From sequence record NC_047812.1: DNA of 44,234 bases; one strand, given 5' to 3'. Shown here in pieces: positions 1 through 44,152 of the stretch. This DNA is from Escherichia phage vB_EcoS_CEB_EC3a. Position 1 is the stretch's first letter; each line of letters begins with the position of its first letter. The notes below the pieces were generated by a model, which was given only the letters and a program-made list of their open reading frames with translations, was not told the DNA's origin and ran no database searches. A program made the position numbers and the translations under genes.

Positions 1-89
1 CTAAGCTGACACGTAACGCCTGTAGCGCGATGTAAGCCAATGCCTATCGTTACGCTAGTTACGCGAAGCTACGCCCAGACTTACACTAT

Positions 90-345
90 AAGTGCCTAAT
101 ATATATATATATCTTCTTTCTATTATTATTATTATTATTAATATTATTGTATGTAAGTCATGTAACAGGGGTCCTGGCGATATCTATATGTTTTTTCCTA
201 TCAGTTATAGCCGAGGCTATAATTTAGGGTATGGTGGGGGTGTTTTGGGGATGTTTGCATCGTTACACGCACGACACGCTACTCACATTGAGCTATAGCT
301 GGGCTGGCATGCCATTTCACGTAACGACCCCCAAAAGTTACCAAG
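90..345. promoter_or_regulatory. AT-rich block (copy A) with (TA)n, (TTA)n and ACGTAAC/GTTACG repeats; homologous to 26480-26760
   Basis: Shared ACATTGAGCTATAGCTGGGCTG (287-307 vs 26677-26698), shared ACGTAACGA, TCATGTAAC and TTATTATTATTA runs; no convincing ORF. Confidence 0.55.
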
Positions 346-413
346 AATTACACTTGACTACACGTGTAAGTCGGGATATTATGGACTCAACTTAAACGAG
401 AGGAGTGATAGAG

Positions 414-893
414 ATGAGCGAGAAGGTAACATTAGGCCAAGTGATTCGTGAGATGGTAAAAGCAGCGCTTAAGTCTGAGGATAAGCAGATCAGCGTGACA
501 CTCAACAAGATTGAGAGCCTTATTGGTGCCGAAGATGGTGGCCTACACAAGCTTAAGAGCTCATACATCTATAATACAACGGCTCGCATGCCTGAATTGA
601 GAGATGCAGGACTGAAGGCAACTCACCATTATGATGAAGAAAGGGGTATTAATGAATTTACTGGGAGTGAGATACTTGGAGACAAGAAGCTGGTTATCAA
701 ACTGATTCCAGGCTCGGCAAACATTGGAATCAGGAAGAAGACCAACGACGCGATCAAGAATGAGGCAATCACTGAGTTCAAGGCGAAGATTTCTAAGGTG
801 ATGCCAGACCTTTCTGAGTATGAGGGTGAAGCGCTTGCGGCAGCGATGAAGGCCATTAAAGATTACCGATTAATTATTGAGGAGATTAAATAA
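414..893 (+). CDS. hypothetical protein
   Basis: ORF with AGGAG RBS 8 nt upstream of ATG 414; first gene after regulatory block. Confidence 0.6.
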   Translation: MSEKVTLGQVIREMVKAALKSEDKQISVTLNKIESLIGAEDGGLHKLKSSYIYNTTARMPELRDAGLKATHHYDEERGINEFTGSEILGDKKLVIKLIPGSANIGIRKKTNDAIKNEAITEFKAKISKVMPDLSEYEGEALAAAMKAIKDYRLIIEEIK

Positions 894-4661: not shown

Positions 4662-4739
4662 GCTCTGCTAGCTCAACAGGACAGCAGCAACGACCTTCTA
4701 AGTCGTAGGTTACTGGTTCGAATCCAGTGCGGAGCGCCA
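4662..4739 (+). tRNA. tRNA-Arg (anticodon TCT), CCA encoded
   Basis: Manual cloverleaf: acceptor GCTCTGC/GCGGAGC, anticodon stem ACGAC/GTCGT with loop CTTCTAA, T-arm ACTGG-TTCGAAT-CCAGT, discriminator G + CCA. Confidence 0.8.
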
Positions 4740-4745
4740 AATTAA

Positions 4746-4847
4746 CGTCGCGTTGCTAATGTTGGTTAAAGGGTGGAGCTTATACCTCCATAAAGCAATC
4801 TCCAGATAAGAGATGTAACGCAGGTTCGATTCCTGCCGCGACGACCA
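4746..4847 (+). tRNA. atypical tRNA-like gene (102 nt), possibly tRNA-Ile (anticodon GAT) with ~24-nt hairpin inserted in D-loop; CCA encoded
   Basis: Perfect 7-bp acceptor CGTCGCG/CGCGACG, canonical T-arm GCAGG-TTCGATT-CCTGC, anticodon-like hairpin ATCTC-CAGATAA-GAGAT, extra hairpin TGGAG-CTTATAC-CTCCA at 4774-4790. Confidence 0.5.
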
Positions 4848-5156: not shown

Positions 5157-5663
5157 ATGAGCAAAGCAGCATTAAAGATGGGCGAGGGAAATTTCAAGGC
5201 GCTCTACAACAAGAAGTATGGCGATATTGCTATGGTGGCAATCAACCGCAAGTACACGCCGGAAGAGGTATTTGACTTTGCCGTTCGATACTTCTCCTGG
5301 GCTGAGAGTGAGGCAATCAAAGCCATTGAGACGGCGGCATTCCATGGAGTTGTCAGTGAAAACCTTGTACACAAGCCTAGGGTGTTCACATTAACCGGGC
5401 TGGCGCTATTTATGGGTGTTAACATCAATAGATTCGCTCGGTGGCGTACTGAGGCTGGGTACTCTGATGTGATGGAATTCATTGATAGCGTAATCTACGA
5501 GCAGAAATATCAGCTTGGCGTTGCGGGTATCATCAACTCCACAATCGTTGGTAAAGAACTTGGCATTGATAAGCCGCAGGAGATTACCATTAGCAACAAC
5601 TCAACAGCTAACGATGTTGACAGTATGAAGGAAGCTCTGGAATCTGTAATTAGCAAGCTATAA
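5157..5663 (+). CDS. terS: terminase small subunit (putative)
   Basis: 168-aa ORF immediately upstream of large terminase, AAGGAGG RBS; position-based call. Confidence 0.55.
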   Translation: MSKAALKMGEGNFKALYNKKYGDIAMVAINRKYTPEEVFDFAVRYFSWAESEAIKAIETAAFHGVVSENLVHKPRVFTLTGLALFMGVNINRFARWRTEAGYSDVMEFIDSVIYEQKYQLGVAGIINSTIVGKELGIDKPQEITISNNSTANDVDSMKEALESVISKL

Positions 5664-24295: not shown

Positions 24296-24320
24296 AGGCC
24301 CCTTTCGGGGCCTTTTCTTT
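24296..24320. terminator. bidirectional intrinsic terminator between convergent operons
   Basis: AGGCCCCTTTCGGGGCCT hairpin with T-run downstream and A-run upstream. Confidence 0.75.
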
Positions 24321-25291
24321 TAGTAGAAGTTTGGAATAAATGGAAGTGCCATTGATATGTTTGTGTCGAAAGGGAACCGGGCGCCAGTCTGGGTTGAATA
24401 GTTACCTATTACAGAGCCAGGAACAGCCCTAACAGAGCCTCCAGACATGCAAATGCCCTTGTATCGCAAGTTGTTATACCCTCCAGTAACTCTAGTCGTA
24501 GCGCCACATCTAAGAAGCGGGAAGAATCCACCATTTATTGACTGATATACATTGCTTATTTGTATAAATCCACTAAGTACAAATGGTCGCCTAACGCTGG
24601 AGAAAACAATCTGACCAGAGCTATTTGACATTGTAAGACCGGGTCCAGCTACTGGAGGTTCATTCCTGAATATCACCAACTGAACGTAAGTGCTTGCCGC
24701 CACGTCATCTATGCCACCATAGTTTACATCACGGCACCATATCGTACTGCCATCACTCTCCAGAGACACATTTGGGTTATCCCACTTACCAAATGGTATT
24801 CCGCTAACTGGTAGCGACGCTGCCCCGTTAACCTGTATACCTCCAACCCATGCTGCTGACATTAGTCTCGAGTTGCTTGATATAGCAAGGAAGTCAGTTG
24901 AGTTCTCAATGAGTATCCCTGGACTTGATGAAGATGAAGCCGGTAGTATCTCAAAGCAATTCCCAGCAAAGTCAATTATTCGACCTCTGGCACCATTGAA
25001 GTTGCTGAGCGTTATCCTACCAGTGCCGTCATTTACCTTTTGAAACCCGTTCATGTAATAAACTTCGGGTATAACATCATAAGCGTCAACGTGGACCGCC
25101 TTCGTTGGTAGGCAGAAAGCCGTAGAGCCAGGGGACATTGTCAATCCAAAATCCCAAGAACTTGCTGGGGTTGAAAGTCCATTGGTATTTATTGATCCAG
25201 TCACAGCAGGTGCCCTTAACCCTGCCGTAATCTCCATAGCTGGTCTTCCGTCATTGAGGTCAATCAATATACCCTGAGGCATTATTTCCAC
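24320..25291 (-). CDS. hypothetical Ser/Gly/Asn-rich protein co-transcribed with cor-like gene
   Basis: 323 aa ORF; start overlaps stop of upstream lipoprotein gene. Confidence 0.6.
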
Positions 25292-25524
25292 TCCTTACTG
25301 CCGTGATCTGCAACAGAACCGCCGTAACCGCCACCAGTGGCCTTAATTCCATCGTATCGCACATCAACTTCACCAGCTGGTACAATCACACCATTTTTCC
25401 ATTTAGCTACGCACACGCCGTTTGCTTGGGTTGCACACCATCCATCAGGTCGAGGACCTGAAGAACAACCTACCATCATGATTACTGCTGCGGCGATGAT
25501 TGCTGATTTGATTAAGTTAGTCAT
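25282..25524 (-). CDS. cor: Cor-like superinfection-exclusion lipoprotein (putative)
   Basis: 80 aa, signal peptide with lipobox MMVGCSS, Cys/Gly-rich; downstream of tail fiber genes. Confidence 0.5.
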
Positions 25525-25544
25525 TTTGAATTCCTCATTAAGTT

Positions 25545-25606
25545 GTTTCGTTTCGATGTGGTAATAGTATCGAATCCTTGCGATCAGTGTTTAGCAATTA
25601 GTGCTA
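25545..25606 (-). promoter_or_regulatory. palindrome-promoter module, minus strand (TAGCACTAATTGCTAAA; -10 TACTAT; leader TTACCACATCGAAACGAAAC)
   Basis: Reverse complement of 25545-25612 matches module; palindrome TAG is stop of Rha-like gene. Confidence 0.6.
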
Positions 25607-26251
25607 TTTCTTTTCGAGTAACATCTTGATGTCAATGCCGAGATTATTTTCAATCAATCCAGTCAGTGCATCCGTCTTTTCTTTAAGGGCAAAACACTGA
25701 GCTTCATACTTAAATCTTTCCTCCATCTCGTCAGAGCGACTAACCCAGCACTGGCGAGCCTCGCAAGCCAGCATGTCGAGTTTTTCATCGGTATTCTTAT
25801 CCATGAGTAAGATCTCATTTATTCTTTGCTCTGCAACAATGCGCTGACTAAGGTGTGCATTTTGCGCATTAGCCACACCAAGCATCATTCGCACTTCTTT
25901 TAACTCATCAATGCTTACCATCTGGCTGATTACTTCTTCTTGTTTTTTAACTAATTGCTCAAGCTCATGAAGTCGACGGATAACTTTGTGTCGAAGCACG
26001 ACGCTGTAGCCAGTGATTAGCGTTTCGGTGAGTTCCTTGTTGAGTAAAATCTCAGATGTATAGCCTCGATTGTCTGTAAGTAGTTGATAATCATAATGAC
26101 CCAAATCTGGGGCATCGTTATAATGTAACAATTCATTGATCATTTCCTTTGTGTCGCGAACGACGTGATCATGACGTTTCCCGGTTAACTCTGCGATTTC
26201 CTTTGTGCTCATCATGGTTTTTGGTTGTTCTTTGTACAATTCAATGTTCAT
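25604..26251 (-). CDS. Rha-family phage regulatory protein (putative)
   Basis: N-terminal STKEIAELTGKRHDHVVRDTKEMI motif; start at ATG 26251 with AGAGAG RBS. Confidence 0.55.
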   Translation of the reverse strand: MNIELYKEQPKTMMSTKEIAELTGKRHDHVVRDTKEMINELLHYNDAPDLGHYDYQLLTDNRGYTSEILLNKELTETLITGYSVVLRHKVIRRLHELEQLVKKQEEVISQMVSIDELKEVRMMLGVANAQNAHLSQRIVAEQRINEILLMDKNTDEKLDMLACEARQCWVSRSDEMEERFKYEAQCFALKEKTDALTGLIENNLGIDIKMLLEKK

Positions 26252-26315
26252 TTTCATCTCTCTTTGGTTTTGTGATACGAAATTTTCGTAGCACAAGCAG
26301 CACCATTGCCGCCAT

Positions 26316-26366
26316 GCGCCTAAATATAACTAAAGATAGTCAGTTGTCTTTAGCAATTAGTGCTAT
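26316..26366 (-). promoter_or_regulatory. palindrome-promoter module, minus strand (TAGCACTAATTGCTAAA, -10 TATATT)
   Basis: Reverse complement shows palindrome 22 bp upstream of TATATT; upstream of Rha-like gene. Confidence 0.5.
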
Positions 26367-26379
26367 TTATCGCCAATTT

Positions 26380-26760
26380 CACCATAAATCACGGTTACAC
26401 GTAACCGATGTAACTCTATGTATACAATATCATCCGCGGAAAATGATATACGCGCTGTTACGCCAATTTACGCATTGGTTACATTAAAATATCTATATAT
26501 ATCAACCTTTTACTCTTATTATTATTATTATATATATTACTGTGTATATCATGTAACTACTTCTATAGAGTGTTCCGGTTATAATTTTAATATCATGTGG
26601 ATTTATACAGTATTGCGTGGCAACTATACCAACGCACCCTCAGCCAGGAATGGTATACACGATATACACGACGGTTACATTGAGCTATAGCTGGGCTGAG
26701 GTGCCCAAAAACGTAACGAGAGCTAATACCTACACGGAATTACGAGGATTCACACGTAAC
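26380..26760. promoter_or_regulatory. divergent regulatory region; AT-rich block (copy B) with ACGTAAC/GTTAC repeats including palindrome GGTTACACGTAACC
   Basis: Homologous to 90-345; palindrome at 26393-26406; (TTA)n and (TA)n runs; no convincing ORF. Confidence 0.55.
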
Positions 26761-26853
26761 TTTAAGTCAACGATTGGCAAAACCAATTGGACTTGTTGCG
26801 ATGCCGAATATATAGTTACCTCATCGAAAGCAAGCAACCAGAGAGATATAGAA

Positions 26854-27048
26854 ATGACCTACTACATTATCAAAGAGAAAAACAATGCACTGTTCGGCGA
26901 CTGCTACTTTGGCGGGCCTGCTGGATACACCACAGATAAGAATGAGGCAGACCGATTCGATACCAAAGAAGAAGCCAGAGATGTTCTGACCGGGTACTTC
27001 ACTGAGGAAGATTTGAAGTCTGTTAAAGTGGTTAAGGTCAAGGGGTAA
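26854..27048 (+). CDS. hypothetical small protein
   Basis: ORF preceded by TATAGTTACCTCATCGAAAG leader and AGAGAG RBS. Confidence 0.55.
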   Translation: MTYYIIKEKNNALFGDCYFGGPAGYTTDKNEADRFDTKEEARDVLTGYFTEEDLKSVKVVKVKG

Positions 27049-27051
27049 GTT

Positions 27052-28017
27052 ATGAGCTTTACTGTTTACACACGAGAAGAACTATCAAACTCTGAGTACC
27101 ACTCTGAGACTGATCACATCTCCGGTAGCTCGCTTGTCGAGATTATCCATGGTTCGCCAGCTAAGTGGAAATTCAAACAGCGCAATAATGATAGTAAGGC
27201 TCTTAAATTTGGCACGCTGTCACATACTTACATCCTAGAAGGTGACATGTTTGATAAAGAATTCCTTCGAGCCACAGACCTTGACGCGATTGAAGGCTTA
27301 ATTACAAGCCAGACCGGATTATCGGCAGCGCTGAAAAAAGTTGGCGTTGCTGGCACGTCTGGGAAGGGCTATAGCGAACTTGTAGAGATGATGTATCGCT
27401 CCGGTGAGGATTGGCCTGTTAAGTGGCTAATTGAACAGCAGGAGAGTGCTCAGGCGCTTGTGGAGGGTAGGGAGCTAGTTAGCGCGGCAGACTATGACAA
27501 AGTGGTGGCGATGCGTGAGGTTCTTTGTAATATTCCAGCATATAATGCAATAGTGAACAGCGAGACAGCGCAGAAAGAGCTATCAATCTTTGGTGAGATT
27601 CTCGGCGTCGGCGTGAAGATTCGAATTGACCACGTTGATGTTGTTGATGGTGTGGTGTGTATTACCGATCTGAAAACGACAGCCAGCGCATCACCTCAGG
27701 AGTTTGGGAGACTTGCATTCAAGCATGGGTATCTTGCAAAAATGGCTCTACAGCACGATGTTTTTGTTATGGCTTTTAATGAAAAAAGAAAAACAAAAGT
27801 AAGGCTACTTGCAATCGAGAAAGAGGAGCCTTACCTACCAATGCTTTACAACATTACAGAAGAGCAACTGAAGGTTGGTCGCAGAATGTATTTAGAGGCG
27901 CTTGCCACTTACAAAAAGTGCAAAGAGAATGATGTGTGGCCCGGTTATGCAATGGGCGCAACAGAGATCGACCTAGATGTTCCTGAGTGGGATATGAGGA
28001 AGTATAAAGAAATTTAA
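27052..28017 (+). CDS. recombination exonuclease, PD-(D/E)XK family (putative)
   Basis: IDHVDVVDGVVCITDLKTT resembles D..(D/E)xK nuclease core; precedes Erf and SSB. Confidence 0.6.
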   Translation: MSFTVYTREELSNSEYHSETDHISGSSLVEIIHGSPAKWKFKQRNNDSKALKFGTLSHTYILEGDMFDKEFLRATDLDAIEGLITSQTGLSAALKKVGVAGTSGKGYSELVEMMYRSGEDWPVKWLIEQQESAQALVEGRELVSAADYDKVVAMREVLCNIPAYNAIVNSETAQKELSIFGEILGVGVKIRIDHVDVVDGVVCITDLKTTASASPQEFGRLAFKHGYLAKMALQHDVFVMAFNEKRKTKVRLLAIEKEEPYLPMLYNITEEQLKVGRRMYLEALATYKKCKENDVWPGYAMGATEIDLDVPEWDMRKYKEI

Positions 28018-28018
28018 A

Positions 28019-28061
28019 TAGCACGAATCGCTAAAGACAAAATTAAAAGGTGGGGTATGAT
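28019..28061 (+). promoter_or_regulatory. palindrome-promoter module (TAGCACGAATCGCTAAA, -10 TATGAT 28056-28061)
   Basis: Motif family member; 20 bp spacing. Confidence 0.55.
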
Positions 28062-32143: not shown

Positions 32144-33065
32144 AGTCTAGTAATTCGCTTGCTTTGTATATTCGCTTTCTTATGCCTGACTTGAAAAAAT
32201 TATCATCATTTGGCATTACCACATCAAGATTGCGATCGTCAGCAACAGCGAGTAAATCAAAATCGTGGCGAGTACAAGCGACGCGTAACTTGTAGTTTCT
32301 AAGCGCATAAGCAACCATTTCCATGTTGTAGCTGGAGTGGCAAACAAGCACACAGCGGTTGCCAGTAGCAATGTGAACGCGATAGCCGTCAATGAGATTA
32401 TCGACCAGATAAGCGTACTCATCATCTTTAAAGGCGCCAATAATAGAAACAGACTGGCGAGTATAATCTTTTGCAGCATAGCTAACATCTCCATCTTCAT
32501 TGATAAACATTACATTGCACATATCATCTGATATGCCGTCACTATAAGCCATAAAGCACGGTACTGCGTGTATTAGTTCGCCTGATTTAGTCCTGCCAAC
32601 ATCAAAACCAAATTCGCTATAGATACCCTCGTATATACTGAGCGGTGTTGATTCTACTCTTTCCGTCCTTTCCATTATCTCAAGGCATCTTTCGTGGTCA
32701 ATCTGCGCGCCCATTTTATAAAGCTTAGTTCTTGATGCTTGCTTGTTTGCCTTAACTATAACCTCAATTGGTGTTAAGTTCAGCCAGTCACCAAGCAAAT
32801 TCACTGAATCGGCGAAGGACGATCCAGTGCACTTCATGACCCATCCTATACCTGAGTCACTTCCGCATTTCGAACAAACTGCCGCGCCATTTCCTTTTTC
32901 ACTGCCTATTTCGTCGGTAAATCTGAATCTGTCAGTGCCAAGGCAGTATGGGCATGGTCCGTGCTTCTTACTTAGGTGTCTATCATTCCAACCAAGTTCC
33001 TTTGCATAAAATAATTTCCACAATCCGGCCATCTTAGGTATAACTTCATTCTTATCGTAATTCAT
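32142..33065 (-). CDS. DNA primase (zinc-ribbon containing)
   Basis: Cys motif CPYC...CSKC near N-terminus; adjacent to helicase region. Confidence 0.6.
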   Translation of the reverse strand: MNYDKNEVIPKMAGLWKLFYAKELGWNDRHLSKKHGPCPYCLGTDRFRFTDEIGSEKGNGAAVCSKCGSDSGIGWVMKCTGSSFADSVNLLGDWLNLTPIEVIVKANKQASRTKLYKMGAQIDHERCLEIMERTERVESTPLSIYEGIYSEFGFDVGRTKSGELIHAVPCFMAYSDGISDDMCNVMFINEDGDVSYAAKDYTRQSVSIIGAFKDDEYAYLVDNLIDGYRVHIATGNRCVLVCHSSYNMEMVAYALRNYKLRVACTRHDFDLLAVADDRNLDVVMPNDDNFFKSGIRKRIYKASELLD

Positions 33066-33541
33066 TTGCTTAACCCGTGATTTTCGTGAAAGTTGTATTT
33101 TCTCTCTGCTTCAATTCTTACTTTATACGCCTGCTCTGGAGTATCGAAGTTCCCAAGGTGTAGCTGCTTACCGTCAACCTTGATGTGAGCCTTAAATTTT
33201 CCGTGATTTAGCTTTGCCACTCCACAATAACCAGTTGTTGATAAAACGCTAAGCTTGCAATTTCTTGAGTTACCTTGATTTGTTGTTACTCTTAGGTTTT
33301 CTATTCTGTTATCTAATTTGTTATGGTTTATATGATCAATGTAGTCGCCATTTTTAAGTTCTCCATTAAACATCTCCCACACAACTCTATGTACATAAGT
33401 CCTAAAGCCATTAACAGACACTTTGTAATAGCCAGATGTAGATAGTGAGTTGCACTCATCGCCAACCTTAACACGTCTTGCAGTGCTAATCTTCCAATGC
33501 AATTTGCCATCTACATAGTAAAAATAATCATGCCAGTTCAT
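33062..33541 (-). CDS. HNH homing endonuclease with AP2-like DNA-binding domain
   Basis: DYIDHINHNKLDNRIENLR HNH motif; GYCGVAK...GKQLHLGNFDT AP2-like segment. Confidence 0.8.
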   Translation of the reverse strand: MNWHDYFYYVDGKLHWKISTARRVKVGDECNSLSTSGYYKVSVNGFRTYVHRVVWEMFNGELKNGDYIDHINHNKLDNRIENLRVTTNQGNSRNCKLSVLSTTGYCGVAKLNHGKFKAHIKVDGKQLHLGNFDTPEQAYKVRIEAERKYNFHENHGLSK

Positions 33542-33593: not shown

Positions 33594-34067
33594 TTACTCT
33601 TTAGCTTTTCGTGCGGCTTCGTTAGCTGCCTTGATCTTTCGCCATGAGCGACACTCTGGTTTAGTTGCTAGCTCAGCCTCAGTAACAACACGCAGCATAT
33701 GACGCTTCTTGCAACGTAGAGTTAGCGGTTTCCCGTTACCGTCGAATTGCAGATCTGGTCGGCAGAATGTAGCGCGAAAACCTTCTCCATTTCGCTTATA
33801 GTAGTTGTGCGACAGCTGGGCGCCGCGCGCAGAAATCATCCCACGCTTAAACCATTCTTCTACAGCCTGAGGTGTCACCTTTAACTGCTTTGCGATATTT
33901 GCCTTTGTGCCGAAGAAATCAAGAACAATCTCCAACCGTGCGCGCAACCCAGCCCTTACCTCGTCTTTTAAAACGTAGTAGCCTGAAGGTCGTTTCCGTT
34001 GTTTTTTGTCTTCAGTACGAATGGTTCCGTTGTTCCCGTTAATTGTTCGCTTGTCTACTGCATTCAT
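33594..34067 (-). CDS. putative HTH DNA-binding regulator
   Basis: Basic protein with helix-turn-helix-like NIAKQLKVTPQAVEEWFKRG segment; divergent from helicase gene. Confidence 0.4.
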   Translation of the reverse strand: MNAVDKRTINGNNGTIRTEDKKQRKRPSGYYVLKDEVRAGLRARLEIVLDFFGTKANIAKQLKVTPQAVEEWFKRGMISARGAQLSHNYYKRNGEGFRATFCRPDLQFDGNGKPLTLRCKKRHMLRVVTEAELATKPECRSWRKIKAANEAARKAKE

Positions 34068-36164: not shown

Positions 36165-36584
36165 ATGCAAATTACAGACAAAGAAGATTACATTGAGTTT
36201 TACCCAGGCCCGGTTAAGTCGTGTCCGAAAGAGGATGACGAACAAATCTTTTGCTCTGATTGGGTTAAGTATAACTACCCGGAGATGGTATTTTTCCACT
36301 GCGTAAATGAGGGGAAGAAAACCATTGGACAGGCAAGAAAGGACCAGGCTAAAGGGCTCCTTAAAGGCGTGTCAGACTGCATGTTTCTTATTCCCGAGTC
36401 TCTGAGAGGCAAATACCCTTTCGGAGCTATAGAGCTGAAGAGGGCTGGCAAAACTCAGGCTAGCCCAGTCAGTGACGAACAGAAGTCTTTCCTTAAAAGC
36501 GTAAGAGAATCAGGCGGTTTCGCTGGTGTTGCCTACGGGCGCGAGGGTTTTCTTGCGGCATTCAAAGAAATGATTTCAAAATAG
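36165..36584 (+). CDS. VRR-NUC domain nuclease (putative)
   Basis: IELKRAGKTQASPVSDEQKSFL pattern; stop TAG in palindrome. Confidence 0.55.
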   Translation: MQITDKEDYIEFYPGPVKSCPKEDDEQIFCSDWVKYNYPEMVFFHCVNEGKKTIGQARKDQAKGLLKGVSDCMFLIPESLRGKYPFGAIELKRAGKTQASPVSDEQKSFLKSVRESGGFAGVAYGREGFLAAFKEMISK

Positions 36585-36624
36585 CACGAATTGCTAAAGA
36601 CGATTTTAAAAGATGCGATATAGT
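36582..36624 (+). promoter_or_regulatory. palindrome-promoter module (TAGCACGAATTGCTAAA, TATAGT 36619-36624)
   Basis: Motif family; leader TTACCACATCGAAACGAAAC. Confidence 0.65.
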
Positions 36625-44004: not shown

Positions 44005-44049
44005 ACTATATCCTCCATGACCCACAATGTCTTTAGCAAAAAGTGCTAT
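44005..44049 (-). promoter_or_regulatory. palindrome-promoter module, minus strand (TAGCACTTTTTGCTAAAG, TATAGT, leader TTAACTCATCAAAACGAGGAG)
   Basis: Reverse complement matches module family. Confidence 0.6.
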
Positions 44050-44057
44050 TCGTTAGA

Positions 44058-44152
44058 TTTATTGATTGTTGCATATATTGCAATGATTATCATGACTATT
44101 GCACATATGGCAATATTGCTTCAGATGCAATGATGTTTTTGATTGTTGCGAA
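44058..44152. repeat. cluster of short TTGCA/TGCAAT and GATTGTTGC repeats upstream of rightmost minus-strand module
   Basis: GATTGTTGC at 44064-44072 and 44141-44149; ATTGCA-type motifs repeated 4-5 times. Confidence 0.45.

Follow-up and report, generated by a model that had tools for sequence, protein, structure and literature searches.

What is the role of the 600-bp non-coding gap that separates a Rha-family gene, on the minus strand, from the plus-strand gene for a 64-aa protein in Escherichia phage vB_EcoS_CEB_EC3a (NC_047812.1)? The window analyzed here, 44,234 bp, is the complete genome of this T1-like coliphage, a T1-like siphovirus (Drexlerviridae, Braunvirinae-like). An earlier note had described the gap as a divergent promoter region that holds the second copy of a duplicated block, is headed by a perfect palindrome, and could serve as an operator array. 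We find that the gap contains copy B of a cis module, undescribed so far and under strong constraint, in a phage family that is well known, and that copy A lies at the left end of the genome (coordinates are collected in the table below). We lean, with somewhat less than even confidence, toward reading copies A and B as an origin-like module, composed of iterons and an unwinding element and carried twice per genome. The early/recombination switch proposed in the earlier note is kept as the main rival, one that we consider possible but doubtful.

The most striking feature of the module had been left out of the earlier note. It is a strictly conserved tract of pure A+T flanked by inverted sites, a combination that one meets more typically at origins than in operator arrays. 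When duplex stability was calculated from nearest-neighbor energies for 60-mers genome-wide, the two AT tracts ranked lowest of all (z = 5.7 and 5.3; next 3.6), with that of copy B in second place. T1 again has its two least stable 60-mers in the two blocks (z = 5.8 and 5.5; next 3.75), and Klebsiella Webervirus Sushi, with 51% GC, gives almost the same picture (z = 5.8 and 5.5; next 3.65). The minima lie at homologous positions in the window, T1, and Sushi, one at the left end and one upstream of the exonuclease gene, and in all three genomes an A+T-rich element of minimal duplex stability adjoins the repeats, as in an iteron-type origin. Both copies have the tract layout (TA)n-ATC-N9-(TTA)5-(TA)n. 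Read on the complementary strand, the (TTA)5 run at 26516-26530 is (TAA)5, which has a three-nucleotide periodicity with a central A. Weak promoter-like hexamers are also present within the tract. The IHF core consensus has two matches genome-wide, and one of these, TATCAACCTTTTA, is at the center of the copy-B tract (26500-26512).

In both copies, two opposed arrays of a short motif stand to the left of the AT tract, and in every copy examined inverted sites bracket it: GGTTACAT and ATGTAAC in copy B, GACTTACA and TGTAAGTC in copy A, and ATCTTAC and GGTAAGAT in Sushi. The arrays of copy A run GTAAC-GTAGC-GTAAG and then, in the opposed orientation, GTTACGC-GTTACGC-GCTACGC-CTTACAC. A sequence similar to the conserved center of copy B, CGCGCAAAA(A)T, lies beside the AT tract in both blocks of Sushi. 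The motif GTWAC occurs at 125 sites in the genome (2.8 per kb), and its two densest 400-bp windows are those of the module, with nine sites in 26394-26756 and seven in 1-340; 16 of the 125 sites fall within the 832 bp of the two blocks (binomial p=2e-9). The two blocks also hold 10 of the 37 genomic copies of ACACG and four of the five of CACGTAAC. Same-orientation GTAAC or GTTAC pairs 9-11 bp apart are found at only two places genome-wide, 26401/26410 and 49/58. Across 23 blocks, which come from related phages so that the pair counts are not independent, 28 GTAAC/GTTAC pairs (0.1 in shuffles) and 43 TACRC pairs (0.3 in shuffles) show this spacing. Tandem short repeats in helical register, another feature expected of an iteron-type origin, are present. 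Because they are enriched, helically spaced, conserved across relatives, and co-varying with lineage, the GTAAC/GTTAC sites resemble the sites of a sequence-specific protein.

The reported palindrome, GGTTACACGTAACC, is indeed located at 26393-26406, and additional half-sites exist (GTAAC at 26410-26414 and GTTAC at 26457-26461 and 26478-26482). It is not perfect, however, as its reverse complement is GGTTACGTGTAACC: a 6+6 inverted repeat, GGTTAC/GTAACC, flanks a 2-nt spacer, AC, that is not self-complementary. A perfect 14-mer, GGTTACGCGTAACC, is found in three relatives (ES, p111, and ACG-M12); in other relatives the left arm is decayed (AGTTAC, CATAC, ATATAC) and TAC-RC-GTAAC is kept. Most sites of the block are direct repeats, and the inverted pair, imperfect here, is one member of these direct-repeat arrays. 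The block is duplicated in the sense that two copies exist, but these form a collinear mosaic of motifs and not a clean or recent duplication. The order common to both begins with ACACGTAAC..GATGTAA, three or four TTACGC-type repeats, the AT tract, CATGTAAC, and two ACACG; it continues with the exact 22-mer ACATTGAGCTATAGCTGGGCTG (26677-26698 in copy B and 285-306 in copy A), TGCC..CGTAAC, and GAATTAC..ACACGT..TAAGTC. Several motifs of 6-10 nt are also held in common, and the flanks of the two copies align weakly without the AT tract (z = 3.9 and 2.1).

Comparison with related phages points to strong constraint on the module. Each of the 132 related records contains the core, 26396-26568, at ≥80% coverage, and in 72 its identity is 95-99%; recE, its neighbor, is 80-90% identical in 59 records and 60-80% identical in 62. 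As judged from these alignments, a non-coding core that is better conserved than recE is under purifying selection. The genomes are mosaic: in the nearest relative, recE is 99.9% and the core 97.7% identical, and in vB_EcoS (Veterinaerplatzvirus) isolates the core is 97% identical, with recE at 80% in one. A stretch of ~95 nt, from TTACATTAAAATATC via the microsatellite-like tract to CATGTAACTAC, is invariant in seven orthologues that are 78-92% identical overall, which is unusual for slippage-prone sequence. BEK3, IME253, and Veterinaerplatzvirus phages are 80-92% identical to the window across the region, and Escherichia phage vB_EcoS_UALMA_PCEc3 is nearly identical to it in the regions tested. 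The genome corresponds to IMG/VR contig UViG_2974674459, and a scan of IMG/VR with the 18-mer ATTGAGCTATAGCTGGGC returned four loci, two of which are the window itself. A protein-coding block was rejected on the basis of frame-breaking indels in the alignment and the pure A+T tract; some records do show open reading frames across the block, but these either extend the 64-aa gene at its N terminus or are spurious.

The repeat itself changes from lineage to lineage. It reads GTAAC/GTAAG in the window, GTAAC and ATTAC in T1, and GTAAGAT in Sushi. One motif serves both copies within the window genome and within Sushi; the two T1 copies have only a TTAC/GTAA core in common. Copy B of Sushi contains GTAAGAT/ATCTTAC at least 11 times at 10-bp spacing, including perfect 16-bp palindromes, and in copy A of Sushi the same motif brackets the AT tract too. 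A constant architecture with a motif that drifts with lineage implies, at the level of sequence, that the binding factor is phage-encoded and co-evolves with the motif, rather than being a host factor. Since the motif varies between phage lineages, direct-repeat boxes of the host OmpR, CpxR, and ArcA type were considered but put aside. Sushi carries the exo/erf/ssb module in inverted orientation, and copy B has followed it to a place downstream of the primase terminator, where it no longer separates divergent genes. The stem of that terminator, at the edge of copy B (Sushi 26303-26329), itself consists of the block motif (GGTAAGA...TCTTACC).

Which phage protein might bind these sites? The earlier note had named two candidates, the neighboring Rha-like protein and the helix-turn-helix protein encoded at 33594-34067. 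The former is an unlikely binder. The left slot of copy B (24320-26251 and orthologous positions) is an accessory-gene hot spot that holds Rha, Roi, or KilA-type genes in this phage, AugustePiccard, BEK3, and CY1, an unannotated 215-aa gene in p111, a Dcm methylase in JeanPiccard, a lipoprotein or cor gene in ES, Rogue1, and T1, and another gene in ACG-M12. With so variable a left neighbor and no Rha homologue in T1, which nevertheless has both blocks, the Rha-like protein was dismissed as the binder. Searches of T1 by tblastn gave no detectable homologue of Rha, the DUF7174 protein (414-893), or the 64-aa protein (26854-27048), and the latter two were likewise rejected as universal binders. 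Retained in T1, along with both blocks, are the Cro-like regulator (52% identity), the primase (41%), and the helicase (50%).

The helix-turn-helix protein, 157 aa long, is the more reasonable of the two proposals and the best available candidate binder. It is family-wide, being conserved in 823 phage records, and its AlphaFold model (pLDDT 86) is an all-alpha Cro fold that matches the Cro proteins of Xfaso-1 (TM 0.72) and N15 (TM 0.69), with weak Foldseek E-values; its best sequence match is P22 Cro (E=0.75). The claim that the phage has no recognizable CI/Cro pair is thus right to the extent that the phage is virulent-type but overlooks a protein with a Cro fold. The identity bands of this protein (76 records at ≥95%, 18 at 90-95%, and 33 at 80-90%) run parallel to the bands for the core (72, 18, and 34 records), a parallel that genome mosaicism alone may explain. 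Its gene is 7 kb away from copy B, and its own promoter region is without GTWAC sites.

From the anatomy, the conservation, the co-variation of the motif with lineage, and the low duplex stability, we infer that the module binds protein, which protein this might be, and that it functions as an origin. Copies A and B would then be cis-acting sites on which a phage-encoded, sequence-specific protein assembles as a multi-site complex. The short motif (YGTAAS / TTACGC here) recurs at intervals of one helical turn in arrays that converge from both sides, and inverted copies of it bracket the ~55-bp (TA)n/(TTA)5 tract, the most easily melted DNA of the genome. The iterons would load a phage protein as initiator to either side of a DNA-unwinding element, and in copy B an IHF bend may assist. 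Situated between divergent early transcription units, the module may also influence those units. For T1-like phages an origin has not been identified (PMC11447400, PMC7718038): the TLS paper found no iteron-type repeats anywhere (PMC11447400) and the SU57 paper no oriC-like site (PMC7718038). Neither block contains a GATC (Dam) site, in contrast to the GATC cluster of oriC, inspection by eye for DnaA boxes gave only 7-8/9 matches, and GC skew, which tracks the direction of transcription in this genome, is uninformative. A long-range hairpin, CCTCAGCC..GGCTGAGG, was discarded as a conserved feature, as neither copy A nor the orthologues conserve it.

A more specific form of the origin proposal draws on bacterial oriC, where basal unwinding uses DnaA boxes beside the trinucleotide repeats of the DnaA-trio (PMC8287927). 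The module resembles that arrangement in having double-strand boxes followed by a trinucleotide run with a central A, here (TAA)5, in the unwinding region; it differs in having no DnaA boxes, and the likeness, which also counts in favor of the main origin reading, is one of layout only. It is conceivable, though we would rate it as rather unlikely, that the blocks are the T1-family origins and that a phage protein, possibly the Cro-fold protein, oligomerizes on the arrays and melts the trinucleotide-repeat element, as a duplicated counterpart of the DnaA-box/DnaA-trio system. In that same joint proposal the recognition sequence would drift (GTAAC, GTAAG, GTAAGAT) and the architecture would stay constant across the Drexlerviridae of Escherichia and Klebsiella.

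Several observations weigh against an origin. The conserved part of each iteron is 5-7 bp, compared with 17-22 bp in classical iterons, and GTWAC is absent from the promoter region of the Cro-fold gene. Copy A of this genome lacks the IHF match. With RecE, Erf, and SSB among their proteins, T1-type phages may replicate largely in a recombination-dependent way. The fixed length of (TTA)5 could reflect a promoter spacer constraint (TTTACT-18-TATATT), the position of the module suits early-promoter control equally well, and a copy B that travels with the exo/erf/ssb operon in Sushi is what one would expect of an operon regulatory region.

These last points belong to the main rival, in which a phage regulator such as the Cro-fold protein coats the arrays in both blocks and thereby switches the activator-independent early promoters P_A (354-382) and P_B (26788-26816) and/or the leftward promoters off or on at the early-to-late transition, with the AT tract acting as an UP-element, promoter, or bending element. 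The region is a divergent promoter region, as had been claimed: the 21-nt repeat (26346-26368) belongs to a leftward promoter, and TGGACT-17-TATAGT (26788-26816) is directed rightward. Both blocks are directly upstream of sigma-70-type promoters without a marbox-like repeat (P_B has the family -10 and leader and no marbox), the inverted pair TAC-RC-GTA is conserved and becomes a perfect palindrome of 14-16 bp in some relatives, and to these may be added the family-wide Cro-fold protein, the hexamers within the AT tract, and copy B of Sushi, which has stayed with its operon despite the module inversion. One site in copy A, ACACGTGTAAG, falls in a promoter spacer, but it is the only such site, and most lie 100-400 bp away from the promoters supposedly controlled. 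The reported palindrome overlaps neither flanking core promoter: ~27 bp separate it from the upstream element of the leftward one, and ~390 bp from the -35 of the rightward one (26788). Operators that overlap the -35/-10 of the promoters they control and an adjacent, autoregulated regulator gene, both of which characterize Cro/CI systems, were not found, and neither candidate regulator shows the linkage one would expect (Rha is not in T1, and the Cro-fold gene has no sites at its own promoter). Direct-repeat arrays with ~10-bp spacing are atypical for Cro-type dimers, and a ~55-bp pure A+T tract, a stability minimum, and above-coding conservation are not explained by operator function. Of the earlier interpretation, the likeness of the sites to those of a sequence-specific protein is supported, as they are enriched, spaced by about one helical turn, conserved, and co-varying with lineage; what is not supported is the 14-mer as a stand-alone operator.

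Two further alternatives were considered. It is improbable that the arrays are sites for the terminase small subunit (or an accessory protein) in a pac region, with copy B as a second pac-like site, a vestige of one, or a hot spot for recombination. In favor of this reading, T1 pac has been placed in the left-end untranslated region that also contains copy A (PMC7718038), positions 1-2800 are annotated as terminal repeat in the T1 record, and the start of several records falls no more than a few hundred bp from copy A. Short motifs in repeated form, together with IHF, are likewise a feature of the pac sites of P1 and SPP1. Yet the module is present in two copies per genome, T1 has one mapped packaging start, and terS is ~5 kb from copy A, whereas pac is expected to be a single packaging-start site in or next to terS. 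Record starts were rejected as pac evidence because they follow a shared convention, many being 400-650 bp upstream of the DUF7174 gene, and are non-independent. T1 has been reported to start packaging in the lambda P-Q region, and a search of that region gave no meaningful similarity to copy A or to a TTGCA cluster that lies beside it. Position 1 of the T1 record is ~120 bp outside the block, in that cluster, which occurs beside copy A only. Less probable still is a small non-coding RNA or structured leader encoded by the block, for example from the conserved GGTTATAAT at 26577-26585. A conserved TATAAT is followed by a conserved 25-nt stretch, and a local hairpin, CCTCAGCC..GGCTGAGG, can form in this genome, but copy A does not conserve the hairpin, the variation in its arms is not compensated, no terminator is present, the block has no Rfam hit, and RNAalifold on seven orthologues (plus strand, 26587-26800) gave z=0.12; no conserved RNA structure was thus detected. 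The inverted-repeat signal of 26369-26500 is equal on both strands and is therefore a DNA-level symmetry. The remaining probability falls to a cis-acting protein-binding module with a role outside the origin, operator, packaging, and RNA readings.

The TTGCA cluster deserves mention on its own account. Conserved TTGCA, TGCAA, and ATTGCAAT elements are clustered at 44056-44140 of the window and likewise at 1-60 of the T1 record and at the end of the Sf12 record. The cluster coincides with position 1 of the annotated 2.8-kb terminal repeat of T1 and is a candidate pac recognition region, separate from the duplicated block.

How does the proposed origin module compare with characterized systems? 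SPP1 (oriL/oriR), P4 (ori and crr), and T4 (oriF(uvsY) and oriG) also have two separated, related cis copies with the same short repeats. T4 oriF lies beside the recombination gene uvsY, much as one copy of the module here is beside recombination genes. The T1 primase is annotated as similar to P4 alpha protein, but the T1-family primase is a stand-alone protein of 307 aa without the helicase and origin-binding domains of P4 alpha, and none of these three origins shows sequence similarity to the module. The origins of lambda and of iteron plasmids, with iterons of 17-22 bp at ~22-bp spacing, are alike in that initiator-type repeats in helical register adjoin an easily melted A+T-rich tract, in the IHF consensus (copy B here), and in their place within early transcription units, whereas the units here are 5-7 bp at 9-11-bp spacing. 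Unlike lambda ori, the module is not inside an initiator gene (PMC11447400). The Cro/CI arrays of lambda, P22, and N15 share with the module short inverted repeats of 14-16 bp and a phage Cro-fold protein; the sites of the module, however, are mostly direct repeats, are far more numerous (at least 10 per block), and lie off the core promoters and away from the regulator gene.

The module should also be distinguished from the 21-nt repeat of T1-like phages, which was described for TLS with its function listed as an open question (PMC11447400). A copy of that repeat lies in the same intergenic region, at the left edge of the block, but the repeat has another sequence, occurs in ~16 copies per genome, and is fixed at 38 nt from the -10; the block is a different element. 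The repeat matches the marbox consensus. With the definition AYNGCACNNWNNRYYAAAY (AYnGCACnnWnnRYYAAAY; consensus from PMC3709825) and ≤1 mismatch, the genome has 15 matches, compared with 1.03 expected, and with GCANNWWNTGNNAAA (definition from PMC12052159) it has 12 exact matches, compared with 0.97 expected; T1 has 21 marbox matches. Every copy of the repeat is in forward orientation, toward the downstream gene, and in 11 of 16 repeats TATAGT or TATAAT begins exactly 38 nt after the box, which places the box center near -41. Class II marboxes are forward and centered at -36 to -55, overlapping the -35 (PMC12052159), and the micF site is at about -41 (PMC8811837). The repeat conforms to the class II marbox in both consensus match and orientation/position, which suggests that most T1-family promoters could be of the class II MarA/SoxS/Rob type and that T1-like promoters might use the constitutive host protein Rob (or MarA/SoxS, or a phage mimic). 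No literature linking the 21-nt repeat to the marbox and no T1-family transcriptome were found. At P_B, the position of the 21-nt repeat is occupied by an inverted repeat, ATTGG-caaaa-CCAAT (window 26773-26791), and CCAAT/ATTGG recurs at 26373, 26463, and 26474.

Table. Features of the two module copies and their surroundings in the 44,234-bp window.
Feature	Position	Strand	Remarks
Copy B	~26390-26760		core 26396-26568
Inverted pair GGTTAC-AC-GTAACC of core motif (reported palindrome)	26393-26406
Left array, copy B	26401-26425	+	direct repeats GTAAC, GTAAC, GTATAC; 9-10 bp spacing
Conserved center CCGCGGAAAAT	26434-26444		between opposed arrays
Right array, copy B	26446-26484	-	four iterons ATATACGC, GTTACGC, TTTACGC, GGTTACAT; 10-11 bp spacing; abuts AT tract
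AT tract, copy B	26485-26539		(TA)n ATCAACCTTTTACTC (TTA)5 (TA)n; ~55 bp
(TTA)5	26516-26530		inside copy-B AT tract
ATGTAAC	26551-26557	+	inverted partner of GGTTACAT (26477-26484) across AT tract
Right half of copy B	26654-26698		TATACACGA twice (9-bp spacing), GGTTACAT, 22-mer common to copy A
Perfect 10-bp palindrome AGCTATAGCT	26683-26692		inside 22-mer
Distal sites, copy B	26712-26760	+	CGTAAC 26712-26717, GAATTAC, CACGTAAC 26753-26760
Copy A	1-400		site order >>> <<<< (AT tract 97-150) >>; continues across circular junction
Perfect 8-bp inverted repeat flanking copy-A AT tract	79-86 / 152-159		GACTTACA / TGTAAGTC
Promoter P_A, TTGACT-17-TATTAT	354-382		upstream of DUF7174 gene 414-893
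Rightward sigma-70-type promoter P_B, TGGACT-17-TATAGT	26788-26816	+	upstream of 64-aa gene, recE/erf/ssb
Leftward promoter of Rha-like gene	-10 TATATT 26328-26323	-	21-nt repeat 26346-26368 as upstream element
21-nt T1-family repeat	26346-26368	-	ATAGCACTAATTGCTAAAG on minus strand; matches marbox consensus
21-nt repeat aaATAGCACnnnTTGnTAAAA, further copies	25587-25609(-), 28016-28036(+), 36579-36599(+), 44029-44051(-)		~11 more
Rha-family gene	25604-26251	-	Pfam Phage_pRha, E=1.4e-8
64-aa gene	26854-27048	+	followed by recE, erf, ssb
recE	27052-28017		adjacent to core
DUF7174 gene	414-893		downstream of copy-A promoter
Cro-fold (helix-turn-helix) protein gene, 157 aa	33594-34067
terS	5157-5663		~5 kb from copy A

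Elsewhere in the genome, a tRNA-like Rfam match (41 bits, 99 nt) at 4746-4844 (+) directly follows tRNA-Arg(TCT) at 4662-4739. ARAGORN makes no call on this match, which may be a degenerate or intron-containing tRNA. An HNH_3 endonuclease gene at 33062-33541 (-) sits between the Cro-fold regulator and primase genes; because T1 has no gene at that position, its product is probably a homing endonuclease. Near-identical T1-like coliphage genomes have been deposited as 'Pseudomonas phage PsgS01F' and 'Campylobacter phage A110b' (PP134917.1, MG065688.1). These host labels look doubtful, and the records may reflect T1-type contamination.

T1, one of the classical Delbruck phages, is notorious for contaminating laboratories, and its relatives are widely used in phage therapy collections. 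The ~170-bp core defined here combines a stability minimum, conservation above that of a neighboring gene, two copies, and a lineage-specific repeat, and it turns the question of the T1-family origin into a few direct experiments. Should the early-promoter hub instead be true, a virulent phage family that supplies neither its own RNA polymerase nor its own sigma factor would have its first defined regulatory switch. With either reading, the module and its binding protein would be handles for engineering or blocking T1-like phages.

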